A DNA stretch of 12,672 nucleotides from UHGV virus genome UHGV-1790737. The stretch is one strand, 5' to 3'. Made by a program: the position numbers and the translations under genes. Shown here piece after piece: positions 2,344 to 12,672 of this stretch. Position 1 is the stretch's first letter. Each line of letters starts with the position of its first letter. A model generated the notes under the pieces. That model did not search any database. It was given only the letters and a program-made list of their open reading frames with translations, and was not told the origin of the DNA. Origin of the DNA: a virus.

Positions 2344-3135
2344 ATGAGCGAGAAATTAAAGATAGTCTATCGCCCATTACAAGAATTGTCACCGTATGCG
2401 CACAACGCCAGGACGCACAGCCCTGAGCAGGTGGCACAACTGGTAGAAAGTATTAAGCAATTCGGCTGGACTAATCCGGTGCTGATTGACGAAAAGGGCG
2501 AAATTATTGCGGGTCACGGTCGTGTTATGGCGGCTGAAATGCTCAAAATGGATTCTGTTCCGGTCATTGTTCTGTCTGGCCTGACGGATGAGCAGAAAAA
2601 GGCGTACCGCCTGGCAGATAATCGCCTGCCGATGAATGCTGGCTGGGATGAAGATCTGTTGCGGATGGAGCTGTCGGACCTAATCAATGCTGATTTTGAT
2701 GTCTCCCTGACAGGCTTCATCCCGACAGAAATTGATGAACTGTTGACGGATGTTTTGCCCGGTACAGGAAATGAGGAGGAGCCGTATACGACGAAAATTG
2801 ATACGCCTGTTTATGAGCCGTCGGGCGGTAAACCGGATATCAGTGAACTGTACGACGATACGAAAACGCAGGAGCTGATCAGCCGGATACGTTCGGCTTC
2901 CCTTGAGCCTGATATTGAGAAATTCCTCCTGTGTGCGGCAGAACGTCACACGGTGTTTAATTTCAGCAGAATTGCGGACTATTACGCTCACGCCCCCGCT
3001 GAAATTCAGTGTTTTTTCGAGGAGTCGGCGCTGGTGATCATTGATTATCAGCAGGCTATTGAAAATGGATTTGTCCGGATGACGCAGCGCATGGTGGAGA
3101 TCATGCATGGTGGTGAGGAGGAGGAATATGCGTGA
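2344..3135 (+). CDS. ParB/Srx N-terminal domain protein (ParB-like nuclease/NTP-binding fold) with uncharacterised acidic C-terminal domain, 263 aa
   Basis: N-terminal ~90 aa has the ParB/sulfiredoxin signature, including GHGR (nt 2512-2523) followed by VMAA, i.e. a GxxRxxA-type motif. C-terminal ~170 aa is acidic with no family I recognise. SD-like agga sits 4 nt upstream of the ATG. By position after trkG this corresponds to Rac ynaK, which I recall as a short truncated gene in K-12. Confidence 0.85.
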   Translation: MSEKLKIVYRPLQELSPYAHNARTHSPEQVAQLVESIKQFGWTNPVLIDEKGEIIAGHGRVMAAEMLKMDSVPVIVLSGLTDEQKKAYRLADNRLPMNAGWDEDLLRMELSDLINADFDVSLTGFIPTEIDELLTDVLPGTGNEEEPYTTKIDTPVYEPSGGKPDISELYDDTKTQELISRIRSASLEPDIEKFLLCAAERHTVFNFSRIADYYAHAPAEIQCFFEESALVIIDYQQAIENGFVRMTQRMVEIMHGGEEEEYA

Positions 3136-4060
3136 TGATTTTTGCGCCTTTATTCTGACTCACGGGCGACCGGACAAAGTTCTGACTTACCGGACGTTGC
3201 GTCGTGCTGGCTATACCGGGAAAATTTTTATCGTTGTTGATGATGAAGATAAGACACGGCATCAGTACATGGCTGAATTTGGTGAACAGGTGCTGGTGTT
3301 TTCCAAAACCGATATCGCCAGTCGTTTTGACGAAGCCGATAATTTCTGTGACCGCCGCTCAATTTTTTACGCCCGTAATGCCTGTTTCGACCTGGCAAAA
3401 CTGGTCGGGTGTAAATACTTCATTCAGCTCGATGATGATTATCACGAGTTCCAGTTTCGGGTGGATCGCAACTATGACCAGGCCTATTTCCCGATAAGGA
3501 AACTGGATGCGATCCTTTCTGAAATGCTGGCGTACTACGAATCAATACCTGCTCTTTCCATCGCTATGTCGCAGGGCGGGGATTTTCTTGGTGACAATGG
3601 CGGCCATGCTTCGTGGGTGAAACGCAAGGCAATGAACAGCTTTATCTGTTCGGTTGATCGACCGTTCTCATTCATGGGGCGCATTAACGAGGATGTGAAT
3701 ACGTACACGAATCTCGGTCGCTGTGGTGAATTGTTTATGACGATCGGTGCTGTCCAGTTAGGGCAGAAACAGACGCAGAAAAACAGCGGCGGAATGACCG
3801 AGCTGTATCTGGATTCCGGAACCTACGTTAAAAGTTTTTACTCCGTCATGTATGCGCCGTCGTGCGTAAAAATTTCACTGATGGGTGCCAGCCATAAACG
3901 CATTCACCATCAGGTCACCTGGAACAACGCTGCAGTAAAAATCCTTCACGAAAAATACAGGAAGAAGACACCCTGCATATCAATGGGGGTGACAAATGAT
4001 TCCGTATTCGAAAGTCGAGTCTCTGGCAGCGTGCCGGATGACTGCACAACAAATCGCTGA
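3128..4060 (+). CDS. Uncharacterised 310-aa protein translationally coupled to the ParB-like gene (ydaY-like position)
   Basis: ATG at 3128 is preceded by a strong SD (ggagg, 3117-3121, 6-nt spacing) and overlaps the upstream TGA (3133-3135) by 8 nt. Protein begins MRDDFCAFILTHGRPD and carries acidic clusters (VVDDED, QLDDDYHEF). I cannot assign a family from sequence alone. The ORF-track start at 3107 is rejected in favour of the SD-supported ATG. Confidence 0.8.
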   Translation: MRDDFCAFILTHGRPDKVLTYRTLRRAGYTGKIFIVVDDEDKTRHQYMAEFGEQVLVFSKTDIASRFDEADNFCDRRSIFYARNACFDLAKLVGCKYFIQLDDDYHEFQFRVDRNYDQAYFPIRKLDAILSEMLAYYESIPALSIAMSQGGDFLGDNGGHASWVKRKAMNSFICSVDRPFSFMGRINEDVNTYTNLGRCGELFMTIGAVQLGQKQTQKNSGGMTELYLDSGTYVKSFYSVMYAPSCVKISLMGASHKRIHHQVTWNNAAVKILHEKYRKKTPCISMGVTNDSVFESRVSGSVPDDCTTNR

Positions 4061-4247
4061 CGTTCTGGATGTTGATCTGAACCGACTGAAAGAAAATCGG
4101 GAAGCAATGACAGATTTTTATGCGGCCATCCGTAAGGGCAGAGCGAAAGGTGAAGCCGAGTTACGAGCGGCATTGTTTAAGCTTGCCAGAAAAGGGGATG
4201 CCTTTGCTCTGCGCGAACTACTCAGGGTGGATAAAAATCAGGACTAA
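3996..4247 (+). CDS. Small helix-turn-helix DNA-binding protein (83 aa) immediately upstream of the small terminase
   Basis: ATG at 3996 follows a G-rich SD (gggggtga, 3985-3992). HTH-like segment SLAACRMTAQQIADVLDVD. Its stop at 4245-4247 is 3 nt before the terS ATG. Overlaps the 3' end of the preceding gene by 65 nt; the alternative ATG at 4038 has no SD. Confidence 0.6.
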   Translation: MIPYSKVESLAACRMTAQQIADVLDVDLNRLKENREAMTDFYAAIRKGRAKGEAELRAALFKLARKGDAFALRELLRVDKNQD

Positions 4248-4250
4248 CTG

Positions 4251-5345
4251 ATGAGCAGACCGGACTGGGGGGCGTTGCAGCAGGAGTATATTGCTGAATA
4301 CACCCGCTCCGGTATATCTCCGGTGGCATGGTGTGAAGCAAGGGGACTGAATTACGCAACAGCCCGTCGTTACATCAAAAAAACTCCGAAAAATGCGCAG
4401 ACAGAAATGCGCAAAACTGCGCAAAAAAGTGCGCAGAAAAAATCTGCGCAGACTGCACAAAAGCGGAACGAAAAATCTCAGGAAAAAAAGCCAGTATTCG
4501 ATGCGGGCCTGAATGAGGGCGACGCGGAGGAATTTTCGTTCTGTCCCGATGAATTCGGCATTTCTGACCAGCAGGCTAAGTTTGCGATGCTTGTTGCTCA
4601 GGGTAAAAAGCCGACAGAGGCGTACCGACTAGCCGGTTATGAGGGGCAAGGTGCGACAGCTAACAGCAACGCCAGTCGTATGCTTAGAAATGCCAGGGTT
4701 TATCGTGCTATCAGCTACTTCCGCAATCAGTACCAGAAACGCTATACCGCAGACCTGGATTTACTGGTGAGCCAGTTGATGGTCATTGTCCAGGCCGACC
4801 CCAATCAGTTGGCACAATTTCGCCGTGTTAACTGCCGTTATTGCTGGGGCGAGAATCATCTCTACCAGTGGCGTGATATTGCAGAATTCGATAAGGCTGC
4901 GGCACAGGCCTCCAGAGATGGTAAACCCGAGCCGGAATATGGAGGCCTCGGCTTTGTTGATAACGCCATACCCAATCCGGATTGCCCGAAGTGCTGCGGT
5001 GAGGGAACGGGACAGCTTTATATGGCTGATACCACACTGCTTGATGGGGATGCGCGGCAATTATATGCAGGGTCAAAGCTCGGAAAATACGGTGTTGAGA
5101 TCCTGCTGGAGGATAAGGCTGCCGCCCGGCGTGAATTGTTGCGTTTGCTTTCTGCTGGCGGGGCATTATGTGCAGATAAGCGGCTACAGGAACTGGAAAT
5201 TGAACGGCGCAGAATAGAAAACCAGAAGCTGCACAAAGAGATCGAAACGGTGGAAGATAATGAACATCCCCAGCCTGTGGCGATCAATATTAATGTGGTT
5301 GATGCCAGAGTAAGGAGTGATGAAGATGATCTCTCCGACGCTTAA
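4251..5345 (+). CDS. Terminase small subunit (Terminase_2-like core) with N-terminal HTH, Lys/Gln-rich linker, Cys-cluster region and C-terminal coiled coil, 364 aa
   Basis: Central segment QQAKFAMLVAQGKKPTEAYRLAGYEG...ATANSNASRMLRNARVYRAISYF resembles the small-terminase (Terminase_2) signature as I recall it. It sits directly upstream of, and overlaps, the large terminase. Extra features: CRYC...CPKCC cysteine cluster and coiled-coil tail. Confidence 0.8.
   Translation: MSRPDWGALQQEYIAEYTRSGISPVAWCEARGLNYATARRYIKKTPKNAQTEMRKTAQKSAQKKSAQTAQKRNEKSQEKKPVFDAGLNEGDAEEFSFCPDEFGISDQQAKFAMLVAQGKKPTEAYRLAGYEGQGATANSNASRMLRNARVYRAISYFRNQYQKRYTADLDLLVSQLMVIVQADPNQLAQFRRVNCRYCWGENHLYQWRDIAEFDKAAAQASRDGKPEPEYGGLGFVDNAIPNPDCPKCCGEGTGQLYMADTTLLDGDARQLYAGSKLGKYGVEILLEDKAAARRELLRLLSAGGALCADKRLQELEIERRRIENQKLHKEIETVEDNEHPQPVAININVVDARVRSDEDDLSDA
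4394..4458. repeat. Array of five palindromic TGCGCA hexamers (plus a TGCACA variant) inside the 5' part of terS
   Basis: TGCGCA at 4394, 4408, 4418, 4430 and 4445, and TGCACA at 4453, embedded in A-rich spacers. The array encodes the AQK/AQT-rich linker of TerS. Confidence 0.6.
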
Positions 5346-6627
5346 TGTGCCTCAGGCGCGATTTCTTTCAATGCCCCATAAATTTAAAGCCTATATTGCT
5401 GGTTTTGGCTCGGGCAAAACATGGGTTGGGTGTGGCGGCATATGCAAGGGGATTTGGGAGCATCCAGGTATAAATCAGGGATATTTTGCGCCAACGTATC
5501 CCCAAATTCGCGATATTTTTTACCCTACAGTGGAAGAAGTTGCTGCTGACTGGGGATTGAACGTAAAAATTAATGAGGGAAATAAAGAGGTTCACTTTTA
5601 TTACGGACGCCAGTATCGGGGAACCACTGTCTGCAGATCGATGGAGAAGCCACAAACGATCGTCGGTTTCAAAATTGGTAATGCGTTGGTGGATGAACTG
5701 GACATTTTGCCGAAGGAAAAAGCCAGAACGGCGTGGCGCAAGATAATTGCACGTATGCGTTATAAGATTGATGGACTTCGCAACGGTATTGACGTTACAA
5801 CCACGCCGGAAGGATTCAAATTTGTCTACGAGCAGTTTGTTAAAGCCGTGCGTGAAAAAACAGAGCTGGCCTCACTGTATGGTCTGGTGCAGGCATCTAC
5901 TTTCGATAATGAAAAGAACCTGCCAGCAGATTACATTCCTTCGCTTCTTGAATCATACCCTCCAGAGCTGATTAAAGCCTATCTTCGAGGACAGTTTACT
6001 AACCTGACAAGTGGTACTGTTTACCATCAGTTTGACCGGAAACTGAATAATTGCGAAGAAGTGGAGCAGCCAGGGGAGCCGATTTATATTGGGATGGATT
6101 TTAACGTTGGAAAGATGGCGGGAATCGTCCATGTGCTGCGTTTGGGGCTTCCATGTGCGGTAACTGAAATCATCAATGCCTACGATACGCCGGATATGAT
6201 CCGCCTCATTAAAGAACGCTTCTGGCTGTATGATGGGAATGATTACCGGAAAGTGAGGGAAATTTATATTTATCCAGATGCTTCCGGGGACTCCAGAAAA
6301 TCAAGTAACGCAAGTACGACGGATATAGCCCAGCTTAAGCAGGCTGGTTTTAACGTTGTGGTGAACAGCTCGAACCCGCCAGTAAAAGATCGCGTTAACT
6401 CAATGAATGCAATGTTCTGCAATGCCAATGGTGAGCGTCGCTATAAAGTTAATGTGAAGCGTTGCCCGTTATATGCCGAATCTCTGGAGCAACAGGTCTG
6501 GGATGAGAAGGGGGAGCCTGATAAAAAATCTGGCAATGATCACCCGAATGATGCCGGAGGTTATTTCATCGTTAAGCAATTCCCTATTGTCAAACCGACC
6601 GGAAGAGTCACATCACTTCGGATTTAA
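5326..6627 (+). CDS. Terminase large subunit (ATPase/nuclease), about 433 aa
   Basis: Walker A-like motif AGFGSGKT near the N-terminus, acidic motifs in the C-terminal half consistent with a nuclease domain, and position after terS. SD aggag (5313-5317) favours ATG 5326 over the in-frame GTG 5317 and ATG 5320. Overlaps the terS stop. Confidence 0.88.
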   Translation: MISPTLNVPQARFLSMPHKFKAYIAGFGSGKTWVGCGGICKGIWEHPGINQGYFAPTYPQIRDIFYPTVEEVAADWGLNVKINEGNKEVHFYYGRQYRGTTVCRSMEKPQTIVGFKIGNALVDELDILPKEKARTAWRKIIARMRYKIDGLRNGIDVTTTPEGFKFVYEQFVKAVREKTELASLYGLVQASTFDNEKNLPADYIPSLLESYPPELIKAYLRGQFTNLTSGTVYHQFDRKLNNCEEVEQPGEPIYIGMDFNVGKMAGIVHVLRLGLPCAVTEIINAYDTPDMIRLIKERFWLYDGNDYRKVREIYIYPDASGDSRKSSNASTTDIAQLKQAGFNVVVNSSNPPVKDRVNSMNAMFCNANGERRYKVNVKRCPLYAESLEQQVWDEKGEPDKKSGNDHPNDAGGYFIVKQFPIVKPTGRVTSLRI

Positions 6628-11461: not shown

Positions 11462-11809
11462 ATGATCACTTACGTGACCTGTGATGACGTTGATAATGCG
11501 TTTGGGAACGCCTGGACGAGTGAGAACGCTAAAAATAAAGCTGTTTTAATGGCTAATGCCTGGCTTAATGGCTTCAACCTGAAAATTAACCCATCCCGTA
11601 TTCCGGAAGAGGTAAAACTTGCGGGAGCATATGCAGCCAGAATTGCCTCATTCGGTAAGTTGTTTCAGCAGAAAAATGATTCTGGCGTTGTTATCAGTAA
11701 AGCCGTGTCGGCTGACGGGGTCAGTGTATCGAAATCATTTTCTGAGTTGCCAGCAAACAGCACTGCATTGGATTTGCCCCTATATTTCCAGACACCTGTT
11801 ATCACTTAA
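11462..11809 (+). pseudogene. Phage structural gene (head-completion/connector candidate by position) truncated by IS2; the last ~13 codons are read from IS2 sequence
   Basis: ORF MITYVTCDDVDNAFGNAWTSENAKNKAVLMANAWLNGF... runs in frame across the IS2 boundary at 11768/11769, so the native reading frame is interrupted after ~102 codons. The functional call is positional only. Confidence 0.55.
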
Positions 11810-12672
11810 CCCATTACTGGCTTGCTGCCGTAGATATTCCCGTGGCGAGCGATAACCCAGTGCACTATGCGGATGCCATTCGTTATAATGCTCGAACGCC
11901 TCTGCAAGGTTCTTTGCTGCCGTTAACCCGTCTGGTTTGGGCATGACACTGATGTAGTCACGCTTTATCGTTTTCACGAAGCTCTCTGCTATGCCGTTAC
12001 TCTCCGGACTCCGCACCGCCGTGCTCTTCGGTTCAAGCCCCAACATCCGGGCAAACTGCCGTGTTTCATTAGCCCGGTAGCATGAACCATTATCCGTCAG
12101 CCACTCTACTGGAGACGCCGGAAGCTCGTTGCCGAAGCGGCGTTCCACCGCTCCCAGCATGACGTCCTGTACTGTTTCACTGTTGAAGCCGCCCGTAGTG
12201 ACCGCCCAGTGCAGTGCCTCACGGTCACAGCAGTCCAGCGCGAACGTGACTCGCAGTTTTTCTCCGTTATCACAGCGGAACTCGAACCCGTCAGAGCACC
12301 ATCGCTGATTACTTTCTTTCACAGCCACTCTGCCTGTATGTGCCCGTTTCGATGGCGGTACAGCAGGTTTTCGCTCAAGCAACAGCGCATTCTGGCGCAT
12401 GATCCGGTAAACACGTTTGGCATTGATCGCAGGCATACCATCAAGTTCTGCCTGTCTGCGAAGCAGCGCCCATACCCGACGATAACCATACGTGGGCAGC
12501 TCTCCGATAACATGGTGTATACGGAGAAGCACATCCGTATCATCAGTGTGACGACTGCGGCGGCCATCCATCCAGTCATCGGTTCGTCTGAGAATGACGT
12601 GCAACTGCGCACGCGACACCCGGAGACAACGGCTGACTAAGCTTACTCCCCATCCCCGGGCAATAAGGGCGC
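11769..12672 (-). mobile_element. IS2 (partial; continues beyond the right window edge), inverted relative to the left copy
   Basis: Terminus tggatttgcccctatatttccagaca at 11769 onward, and the encoded InsD transposase. The terminal 53 nt are about 92% identical (4 mismatches) to the reverse complement of 1-53. Confidence 0.9.
11780..12672 (-). CDS. insD: IS2 transposase OrfB (InsD), 5'-partial (N-terminus beyond window)
   Basis: Minus-strand translation ...[70 protein letters not shown]...[36 protein letters not shown] matches IS2 InsD as I recall it (DDE integrase-type). The frame remains open to the window edge at 12672. Confidence 0.9.

Follow-up and report, generated by a model that had tools for sequence, protein, structure and literature searches.

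How a small terminase (TerS) picks out viral DNA for packaging is a long-standing problem: the ring-type TerS proteins solved so far bind DNA weakly and with little specificity, and few packaging initiation (pac) sites are known. The question is raised here by the viral genome UHGV-1790737, of which a stretch of 12,672 nt (hereafter the window) was analyzed. Its terS gene encodes a 364-residue protein that a first-pass annotation, made from the sequence alone, described as an atypically long small terminase with extra domains that may contribute to DNA recognition. The best overall explanation of the data, which we regard as fairly probable, is that this protein is a mosaic TerS whose N-terminal helix-turn-helix (HTH) domain reads an array of hexamers inside terS itself as pac, whose core is of a zinc-binding type and whose C-terminal tail docks the large terminase (TerL).

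That the gene encodes a small terminase was confirmed by matches to Terminase_2 (PF03592, 34.6 bits against a cutoff of 26.1, E = 3.5e-8) and, along the full length of the protein, to phrog_51 (E = 8e-76). The Prokaryotic Genome Annotation Pipeline (PGAP) names the product 'terminase small subunit' (WP_000089450.1), and the gene has the synteny of a Terminase_2 small terminase, directly 5′ of terL in a head-morphogenesis operon that continues with the portal gene. Protein structure was assessed throughout on an AlphaFold2 (AF2) monomer model built on an alignment of 104 diverse homologues, with a mean predicted local distance difference test score (pLDDT) of 85.6 and values of about 97 for aa 100-300; a model from the single sequence (pLDDT 50.8) was set aside. 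We are highly confident that the product is a small terminase with a modular, four-module anatomy (Table 1). The HTH-like region and the Lys/Gln-rich basic linker of the first-pass annotation both reappear in it. The former is a three-helix HTH (aa 6-20, 24-30 and 35-38; pLDDT 89-96), with a weak IS66 TnpA-like match (E = 2e-4, score under the cutoff); Pfam and NCBIfam searches with this domain returned no significant family. The linker, basic and with a high content of Lys, Gln and Ala, falls to a pLDDT of 35-55 for aa 60-99 (below 50 for aa 69-92), and differs in length and sequence between relatives, including by insertions and deletions of whole repeats.

The DNA that encodes this linker holds the candidate recognition site. 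Five exact copies of TGCGCA(A/G)A lie there with start-to-start spacings of 14, 10, 12 and 15 nt (4394-4452), followed by a degenerate sixth copy (TGCACA, 4454) that reads TGCGCA in relatives. Five of the nine TGCGCA hexamers in the 12.7-kb window thus fall inside 59 nt, a clustering that arose 0 times in 100,000 trials of random placement of nine sites, and the array is the sole spot in the window with any hexamer present at least four times per 100 nt. The copies do not share a reading frame: the one at 4408 is read as aTG-CGC-Aaa (Met-Arg-Lys) and the others as xxT-GCG-CAx (Ala-Gln). Klebsiella phages whose TerS is 36-38% identical carry six TGCGCA at the same place, spread across all three frames. 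In a set of phage loci and 80 cross-species genome loci, the majority of them from Enterobacterales, the genome loci had 242, 78 and 18 TGCGCA copies in frames 2, 1 and 0, respectively, and spacings of 7, 9, 12 and 14 nt were all frequent. Because the frames are mixed and these spacings occur side by side, the array is not a codon repeat.

An alternative is that the linker repeats are a peptide-level, low-complexity Lys/Gln/Ala spacer grown by replication slippage, the DNA motif itself being without function. Homopolymer runs occur in this A-rich region, copy number shifts by whole-repeat insertions and deletions, disordered basic linkers are frequent in DNA-binding proteins, and AF2 confidence is low in the linker. 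This explanation is nevertheless very unlikely, given that the hexamer is kept in three frames (encoding AQ, (L/M/V)R and CA) at spacings that are not multiples of 3 and that positions free to vary synonymously are constrained. In the Ala-Gln/His dipeptides of the linker, 94% of the Ala codons are preceded by T, compared with 43% in the remainder of TerS, and 93% of them (against 66%) are GCG. In an E. coli variant (P0014/L090) part of the linker is read in another frame, and yet four of the five TGCGCA copies are kept; P0014 regains the original frame after about 25 codons. True codon repeats, recovered in the reverse scan described below, have strict 9- or 12-nt periods in one frame, unlike the array, and the identity of the hexamer switches along with HTH residue 39. 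Together, these patterns show selection on the DNA of the array and not on the linker peptide. The low-complexity basic linker reported earlier is present, and its Lys/Gln-rich composition is better explained as largely a by-product of a hexamer array that covaries with residue 39.

The covariation was counted over 83 loci. An Arg39 helix (N-Y-x-x-A-R39-R-Y-I-K) is accompanied by a TGCGCA array in 68 of 69 loci, with up to 9 copies and a mean of 4.9 per 150 nt (background 0.107). A Lys39 helix (...A-K39-R-Y-I-K) is accompanied by a TGCGAA(T)/ATTCGCA (TTCGCA) array in 14/14, with 3-7 copies (mean 5.0, background 0.07) that often form the palindrome TGCGAATTCGCA. Residue 39 alone, among 43 N-domain positions, separates the Arg/TGCGCA and Lys/TGCGAA classes; a Trabulsiella locus with Lys39 and seven TGCGAA (L092) and a Citrobacter locus with Arg39 and four TGCGCA (L102) are identical at 41 of these 43 positions. 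The two classes are interleaved in sequence, which argues for repeated class switches. The case for covariation rests on this interleaving, on the concerted change of all copies within an array and on its independence of reading frame.

Shiga toxin (Stx)-converting phages provide a third class. In VT2-Sakai (L172, 2630-2690) and 933W-type phages the N-domain is 53% identical, its helix reads NTARTRIK, and the HTH is followed directly by four copies of (C/T)GATCAT at 12-nt spacing. These repeats encode IDHE, IDHK, TDHE and IDHD, each has a Dam GATC site, and a remnant TGTGCA/TGCGCA pair lies further 3′. Several Stx-phage records (phi345 and others) end inside terS; they were considered as physical DNA ends and rejected, the record merely having been opened at the start of terL. 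The literature searched yielded no data on virion ends.

The HTH and its array also travel together. The pair was found on three TerS cores, namely phrog_51 (with the four-Cys insertion discussed below), phrog_32222 (Terminase_2 without the Cys module) and phrog_370 (no Pfam domain), and for this reason the constant partner of the array is the N-terminal HTH and not the G1P-type DNA-binding domain of the core. The N-terminal HTH is missing from the TerS of phages F116 and Bcep22. In a reverse scan for viral-contig stretches in which three TGCGCA copies lie near one another, 68 of the 120 came straight after this N-terminal HTH; inspection added two with a variant-helix HTH and two at a contig end that cuts the HTH off, and the rest, among those inspected, were strict in-frame codon repeats or other contexts. 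One locus (L175, 2090-2180) has a more distant N-terminal HTH, with the helix ESTLRKRIA, followed by seven TGCGCA, and from it the cassette may extend beyond the RRYIK-type helix. Another (L287, 2890-2990) encodes a winged-helix-like protein whose own gene contains 22-nt repeats (TTTGCGCAGATTTACGCACTCG) that resemble iterons, a probable arrangement of the lambda-O/ori type.

Taken with the position of the array, these patterns suggest that it is probably the binding site of the N-terminal HTH, and on balance we favor it as the pac or TerS recognition site. The earlier proposal that the extra domains may add DNA recognition is plausible for the N-terminal HTH. Several points weigh against this reading. 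HTH and array are adjacent and co-inherited by linkage, so that the instances of covariation are not wholly independent of one another. Single hexamers decay within E. coli (to TGTGCA, TGCGCG or TGCACA) and copy number varies from 4 to 6, so no single copy is essential; the viral-contig scan, which gave near-identical E. coli loci only (80 contigs), reports within-species variation only. Some homologues that bear the N-terminal HTH have short linkers (P0161), the array could have another DNA-level role such as that of an operator, and the prophage carries an insertion sequence (IS) beside its head genes, so that this copy may be defective.

The operator alternative deserves separate weighing. 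The array would then be bound by the N-terminal HTH to control terS/terL autoregulation or the late operon, and not as pac. The HTH does resemble transposase- or regulator-type HTHs, as in the subthreshold IS66 TnpA-like match, and intragenic sites can block transcription or translation. Against this, the HTH is always fused to TerS, on three unrelated cores, and no stand-alone regulator was found among the loci examined. An array of 4-9 sites would also fit a ring oligomer that displays many HTHs on tethers. Pac in or at the start of terS is the rule in studied headful phages, P22 and Sf6 among them. In SPP1, direct repeats that lie across the start of terS belong to the pac site (PMC4737164). 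We consider a purely regulatory role unlikely.

If the array is read as pac, packaging could begin as follows. TerS would oligomerise via its helical core, which a Zn-stapled insertion between the core helices would stabilise or extend, and the G1P-type domains (aa 104-165) would supply non-specific DNA affinity. The N-terminal HTHs of one TerS ring, on disordered tethers of about 55 residues, would bind five or six hexamers multivalently on the concatemer. Such binding would mark the pac region inside terS with an avidity and a sequence specificity that the G1P-type domain lacks. The tail would recruit the cognate TerL, a cut would be made nearby and headful packaging would begin. In keeping with the assumed division of labor, the DNA-binding domain of SF6 G1P binds DNA weakly and non-specifically (PMC4737164).

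Known packaging systems offer partial parallels. Repeated-site recognition of a similar kind is found in P1, with its pac hexamers (TGATCA/G), in lambda, where gpNu1 acts with the cosB R elements, and in the pac of P22 and Sf6 within terS. The GATC Dam sites of the Stx-phage array are reminiscent of the methylation-sensitive P1 pac. In lambda O, a replication initiator, the sites for the N-terminal DNA-binding domain (the ori-lambda iterons) lie inside its own gene, in the linker-coding part; lambda O has no homology to the terS product and serves as an analogy only. Like the terS array, the SPP1 pac boxes are short repeats clustered within or beside terS, where an HTH of the small terminase could read them (PMC4737164). 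The arrangement proposed here differs from known pac and cos sites in that the predicted sites sit in tether-coding DNA right after the HTH that would read them, and in that HTH and array move jointly between unrelated cores.

We tentatively go one step further, with somewhat less than even confidence. The N-terminal HTH and array may be a self-contained, horizontally exchanged pac-specificity cassette on unrelated TerS cores (four-Cys Terminase_2, plain Terminase_2, phrog_370 and Stx-phage), with a near one-residue/one-base code of Arg39-TGCGCA, Lys39-TGCGAA and TARTRIK-GATCAT; separately, the four-Cys module may be the first case in a phage TerS of an oligomerisation core stabilised by metal. 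In the literature searched we found no description of an HTH plus self-encoded sites with residue/base covariation, and no account of TGCGCA or pac repeats of the terS-linker kind; the publication on the Yersinia phage holds no packaging data. The terS gene itself is already annotated and common.

The core of the protein was compared with SF6 G1P. Residues 104-165 have the G1P-like HTH DNA-binding fold, and the family profile finds SF6 G1P (3zqp, E = 4.6e-17) in two stretches either side of an insertion. G1P chain residues 21-101 are matched by profile positions 11-91, and residues 117-154 by positions 188-225; taken alone, this latter match is weak (independent E = 0.5). About 95 profile positions lie where G1P has about 15 residues. 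The PF03592 match gives the same picture, since it spans residues 122-316 of the terS product and only 111 profile positions (19-129), which argues for a large insertion in the Terminase_2 core. In the AF2 model, helices 148-181 and 289-336 are the two core (oligomerisation) helices, split by an insertion of about 95 aa. The Terminase_2-like core of the first-pass annotation is thus borne out, as is its C-terminal coiled coil, which corresponds to the long helix 289-336; beyond the part aligned to G1P this helix is a coiled-coil-like extension. The insertion is argued from the G1P profile alignment and not from that of phrog_32222, which was dropped as 'the same protein minus the insertion' when the C-terminal halves proved to differ in alignment. 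A Foldseek search of the PDB with the terS model returned nothing below E = 0.3, and a structure search of BFVD returned only other small terminases.

The inserted module is modeled with high confidence (pLDDT 97-98) as strands 188-193, 253-258, 272-278 and 281-286 with helices 210-222 and 266-271, and carries the conserved motif CxxCxG...CPxCxGxG. A HMMER search over 1.84 billion cluster representatives gave 1,768 relatives, 1,253 of them (50%-identity clusters) at E up to 1e-10. Among 104 near-full-length representatives, 26-52% identical to the query, C195, C198, G200, C245, C248, G250 and G252 are the sole invariant columns. A CxxC-(30-70)-CxxC pair is present in 114 among the best 150 family matches; the other 36 are mostly truncated or frameshifted, ending before or not covering aa 195-248. 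The same Cys and Gly residues occur in the TerS of Pseudomonas phage F116 (gp38), Burkholderia phage Bcep22 (gp36) and Klebsiella and Yersinia phages. The cysteine cluster described by the first-pass annotation as CxxC...CxxCC is therefore a conserved insertion whose knuckles and spacing are kept in at least 104 diverse representatives, but with four cysteines and not five: C249 (codon 4995-4997) is replaced by A, D or N in homologues.

Paired CxxCxG(xG) knuckles whose Gly residues never vary are the layout required for a single tetrahedral metal centre. We consider it likely that the four-Cys site is a metal (Zn) site, and most likely that the knuckles, of the DnaJ or rubredoxin-knuckle kind, hold one structural Zn2+. 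The metal-binding ribbon suggested earlier keeps its conserved knuckles in this reading, the metal itself being predicted from the sequence. Pulling the other way, no Pfam zinc-ribbon, DnaJ or other family matches aa 165-290 at E up to 10. An NCBIfam search on the inserted module gave nothing, and no solved structure resembles it at useful scores. Because no model matched, the protein is likened to the zinc-ribbon and DnaJ families but not filed under them. Like the DnaJ Cys-rich domain and zinc-ribbon or rubredoxin knuckles, the insertion has two CxxCxG(xG) knuckles with invariant Gly; unlike DnaJ, it has one knuckle pair, about 46-60 residues apart and set in a TerS core, and no significant profile match.

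The site might instead be something other than structural zinc: a rubredoxin-like iron centre, a redox or disulfide switch, or a DNA-contacting zinc ribbon that aids pac recognition. CxxC...CPxC knuckles are found in rubredoxins too, many zinc ribbons bind nucleic acids, and the inserted module is without a solved homologue. The CxxCxG/CPxCxGxG spacing, however, is nearer DnaJ-type structural Zn centres than the CPxCG of rubredoxins. The module replaces the connection between the G1P core helices, which argues for a structural or oligomerisation role, and the N-terminal HTH is the better candidate for specificity, F116 and Bcep22 keeping the Cys site without the cassette. Herpesvirus terminase subunits do have zinc fingers, and pUL28/pUL56 are DNA-recognition subunits of this kind, but they are large all-alpha proteins not homologous to the terS product (PMC9611059). 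Overall, an alternative of this kind appears unlikely. Small-terminase and packaging-motor reviews (2022, 2026) name zinc for herpesvirus subunits only, or not at all, and no account of a conserved metal-type insertion in a phage TerS core was found in the literature searched.

The terS product belongs to the Terminase_2 family and, within it, to an F116/Bcep22-type subfamily defined by the four-Cys insertion. The TerS proteins of F116, Bcep22, BcepIL02, BcepMigl and DC1 (Burkholderia) and PEp14 (Erwinia) share the core and insertion, with invariant Cys and flanking Gly, at 31-35% identity; those of the F116/Bcep22 type have about 260-270 aa and are without the N-terminal HTH, the hexamer-array linker and the E. 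coli-type tail. SF6/SPP1 G1P (PF03592; PDB 3ZQQ/3ZQP, 2CMP, 4ZC3) is smaller still, at about 145 aa, likewise without the N-terminal HTH and linker, with about 15 residues in place of the four-Cys alpha/beta module of about 95. The 364 aa of the terS product are accordingly long among small terminases generally, as first noted, but ordinary within its own large family, in which core-only members have about 240-260 aa and those with the N-terminal module about 320-365 aa.

The C-terminal tail behaves as a further exchangeable part. With aa 301-364 as the query, a recognisably similar tail was found in 32 of 32 four-Cys-core loci whose TerL is more than 80% identical, although their cores are just about 46% identical. 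A locus with a phrog_370 core (L166) has the tail and the same TerL, whereas the closest four-Cys cores (L109, L113 and L151, 62-64% identity) have a different TerL and no tail. The tail therefore follows the type of TerL and not that of the TerS core. By analogy with the usual role of the TerS C-terminus, it would be a TerL-docking segment.

A further alternative is that the 364-aa ORF (open reading frame) results from misannotation or from the recent joining of two genes, one for an HTH protein and one for a shorter TerS made from an internal start, as the first-pass annotation had itself allowed. In five loci (L073, L079, L095, L140 and L158) a +/-1 frameshift in the A-rich linker leaves the core intact in another frame, and the TerS of F116 and Bcep22 are without the N-terminal part. 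The frameshifts lie in A7-A8 runs about 130-260 nt into terS, and homopolymer runs are where sequencing error or decay is expected; they could be sequencing errors, decay, or slippage tracts giving an HTH-only product. Here terS is a single unbroken ORF from ATG to TAA, with AGGA 7 nt 5′ of the start codon, and the ORF is continuous in most relatives: the 80 viral contigs mostly have 363-364 aa, most cross-species genome loci are intact, and Klebsiella and Yersinia phage proteins with as little as about 35% identity still have the same architecture. A two-gene origin is barely credible. In some database proteins (P0006, P0033 and P0035) the terS product is joined with a tail-fibre domain (616 aa) or with the upstream TAGT glycosyltransferase (565 aa); these fusions are probably not real and reflect assembly or gene-calling artefacts or frameshift read-through.

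Table 1. Features of terS and the adjoining genes, in nucleotide positions of the window.
Feature	Position	Strand	Details and evidence
Small upstream ORF, 69 aa (PGAP start 4038) or 83 aa (ATG 3996)	4038..4247 (3996-4247)	+	phrog_309 match, PGAP 'hypothetical protein'
terS, intact 364-aa small terminase, including stop codon	4251..5345	+	ORF, Pfam Terminase_2, phrog_51, PGAP
N-terminal accessory HTH, aa 1-45	4251..4385	+	Putative recognition helix N34-Y-A-T-A-R39-R-Y-I-K43; AF2, weak IS66 TnpA-like match
Flexible linker, aa 46-103	4386..4559	+	Low AF2 confidence; length and sequence variable
Array of five exact TGCGCA(A/G)A and a degenerate sixth copy, TGCACA	4394..4459		Starts 4394, 4408, 4418, 4430, 4445; sixth at 4454
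Terminase_2 / SF6 G1P-type HTH DNA-binding domain, aa 104-165	4560..4745	+	
Four-Cys alpha/beta insertion, aa ~183-287	4797..5111	+	Knuckle 1 C195-R-Y-C198-W-G200; knuckle 2 C245-P-K-C248-C-G250-E-G252
Codons C195-R-Y-C198, first CxxC knuckle	4833..4844	+	Sequence read, invariance
Codons C245-P-K-C248, second CxxC knuckle	4983..4994	+	Sequence read, invariance
Long helix, aa 289-336	5115..5258	+	AF2; first part aligns to second core helix of SF6 G1P
C-terminal tail, aa 337-364, PVAININVVDARVR...	5259..5342	+	Tail tracks TerL type; matches phrog_29114
terL, large terminase, Terminase_6N + Terminase_6C	5326..6627	+	Pfam, phrog, PGAP

The genomic setting is the late region of a lambdoid prophage. 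The gene order is an Rz-type lysis gene, trkG, a ParB-like gene, a TET-associated glycosyltransferase (TAGT)-family gene, a small ORF, terS, terL, the portal gene (DUF4055), a Mu-F-like gene, a DUF6651 scaffold-like gene, a P22-type coat gene and an IS3-family transposase gene. A gap of 3 nt separates the stop of the small ORF from the start of terS, and the 3′ end of terS overlaps the start of terL by 20 nt. The DNA of the locus is present in 906 of 5,426 complete E. coli genomes. The relatives of terL are from Jersey-like, Kagunavirus-like and HK578-like siphoviruses, which are generally held to be headful packagers, and the host of terS is probably a headful-packaging lambdoid E. coli prophage.

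Several neighbours are of interest in their own right. The small upstream ORF resembles the middle of phrog_309, itself a 'terminase small subunit' (E = 8e-23, positions 145-218 of 319), and Pfam and NCBIfam searches gave no match; its product could be another accessory protein for packaging or DNA binding. Directly 5′ of the packaging genes, a ParB/Srx-like gene (2344-3135, + strand) overlaps the TAGT-family gene (the pair at 2344-4060, + strand), whose product matches 'TET-associated glycosyltransferase' (PF20691, E = 3e-35) and phrog_842 'beta-glucosyl-HMC-alpha-glucosyltransferase'. No TET/JBP dioxygenase was found within the window. The pair may be a DNA-modification module and could interact with packaging or restriction. 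The trkG potassium-transporter gene (TrkH family, E = 4e-144; 731-2206, + strand), between the lysis genes and the ParB-like gene, is cargo within the late region, and trkG is likewise carried in the Rac prophage of K-12. At the other end of the window an IS3-family transposase ORF (rve, rve_3, HTH_21; minus strand, within 11462-12619) abuts or overlaps the 3′ end of ORF 11462-11809 (115 aa), whose counterpart in NZ_AP022105.1 has 396 nt, and the IS probably truncates a head-completion gene.

For the family, the four-Cys insertion marks a large TerS subfamily that numbers at least 1,253 clusters (50% identity), has no solved structure and is a clear target for structural work. If the array is indeed read by the HTH as pac, pac sites, and with them the DNA that is mobilised or transduced, could be predicted from sequence for many prophages of Enterobacterales, Stx phages among them, and packaging specificity could be re-programmed. 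Nature already provides specificity variants, set apart by a single residue and a single base. Such a system would also help to account for the choice of chromosomal regions moved by lateral or generalised transduction, and would offer a means to re-target packaging in engineered phages.

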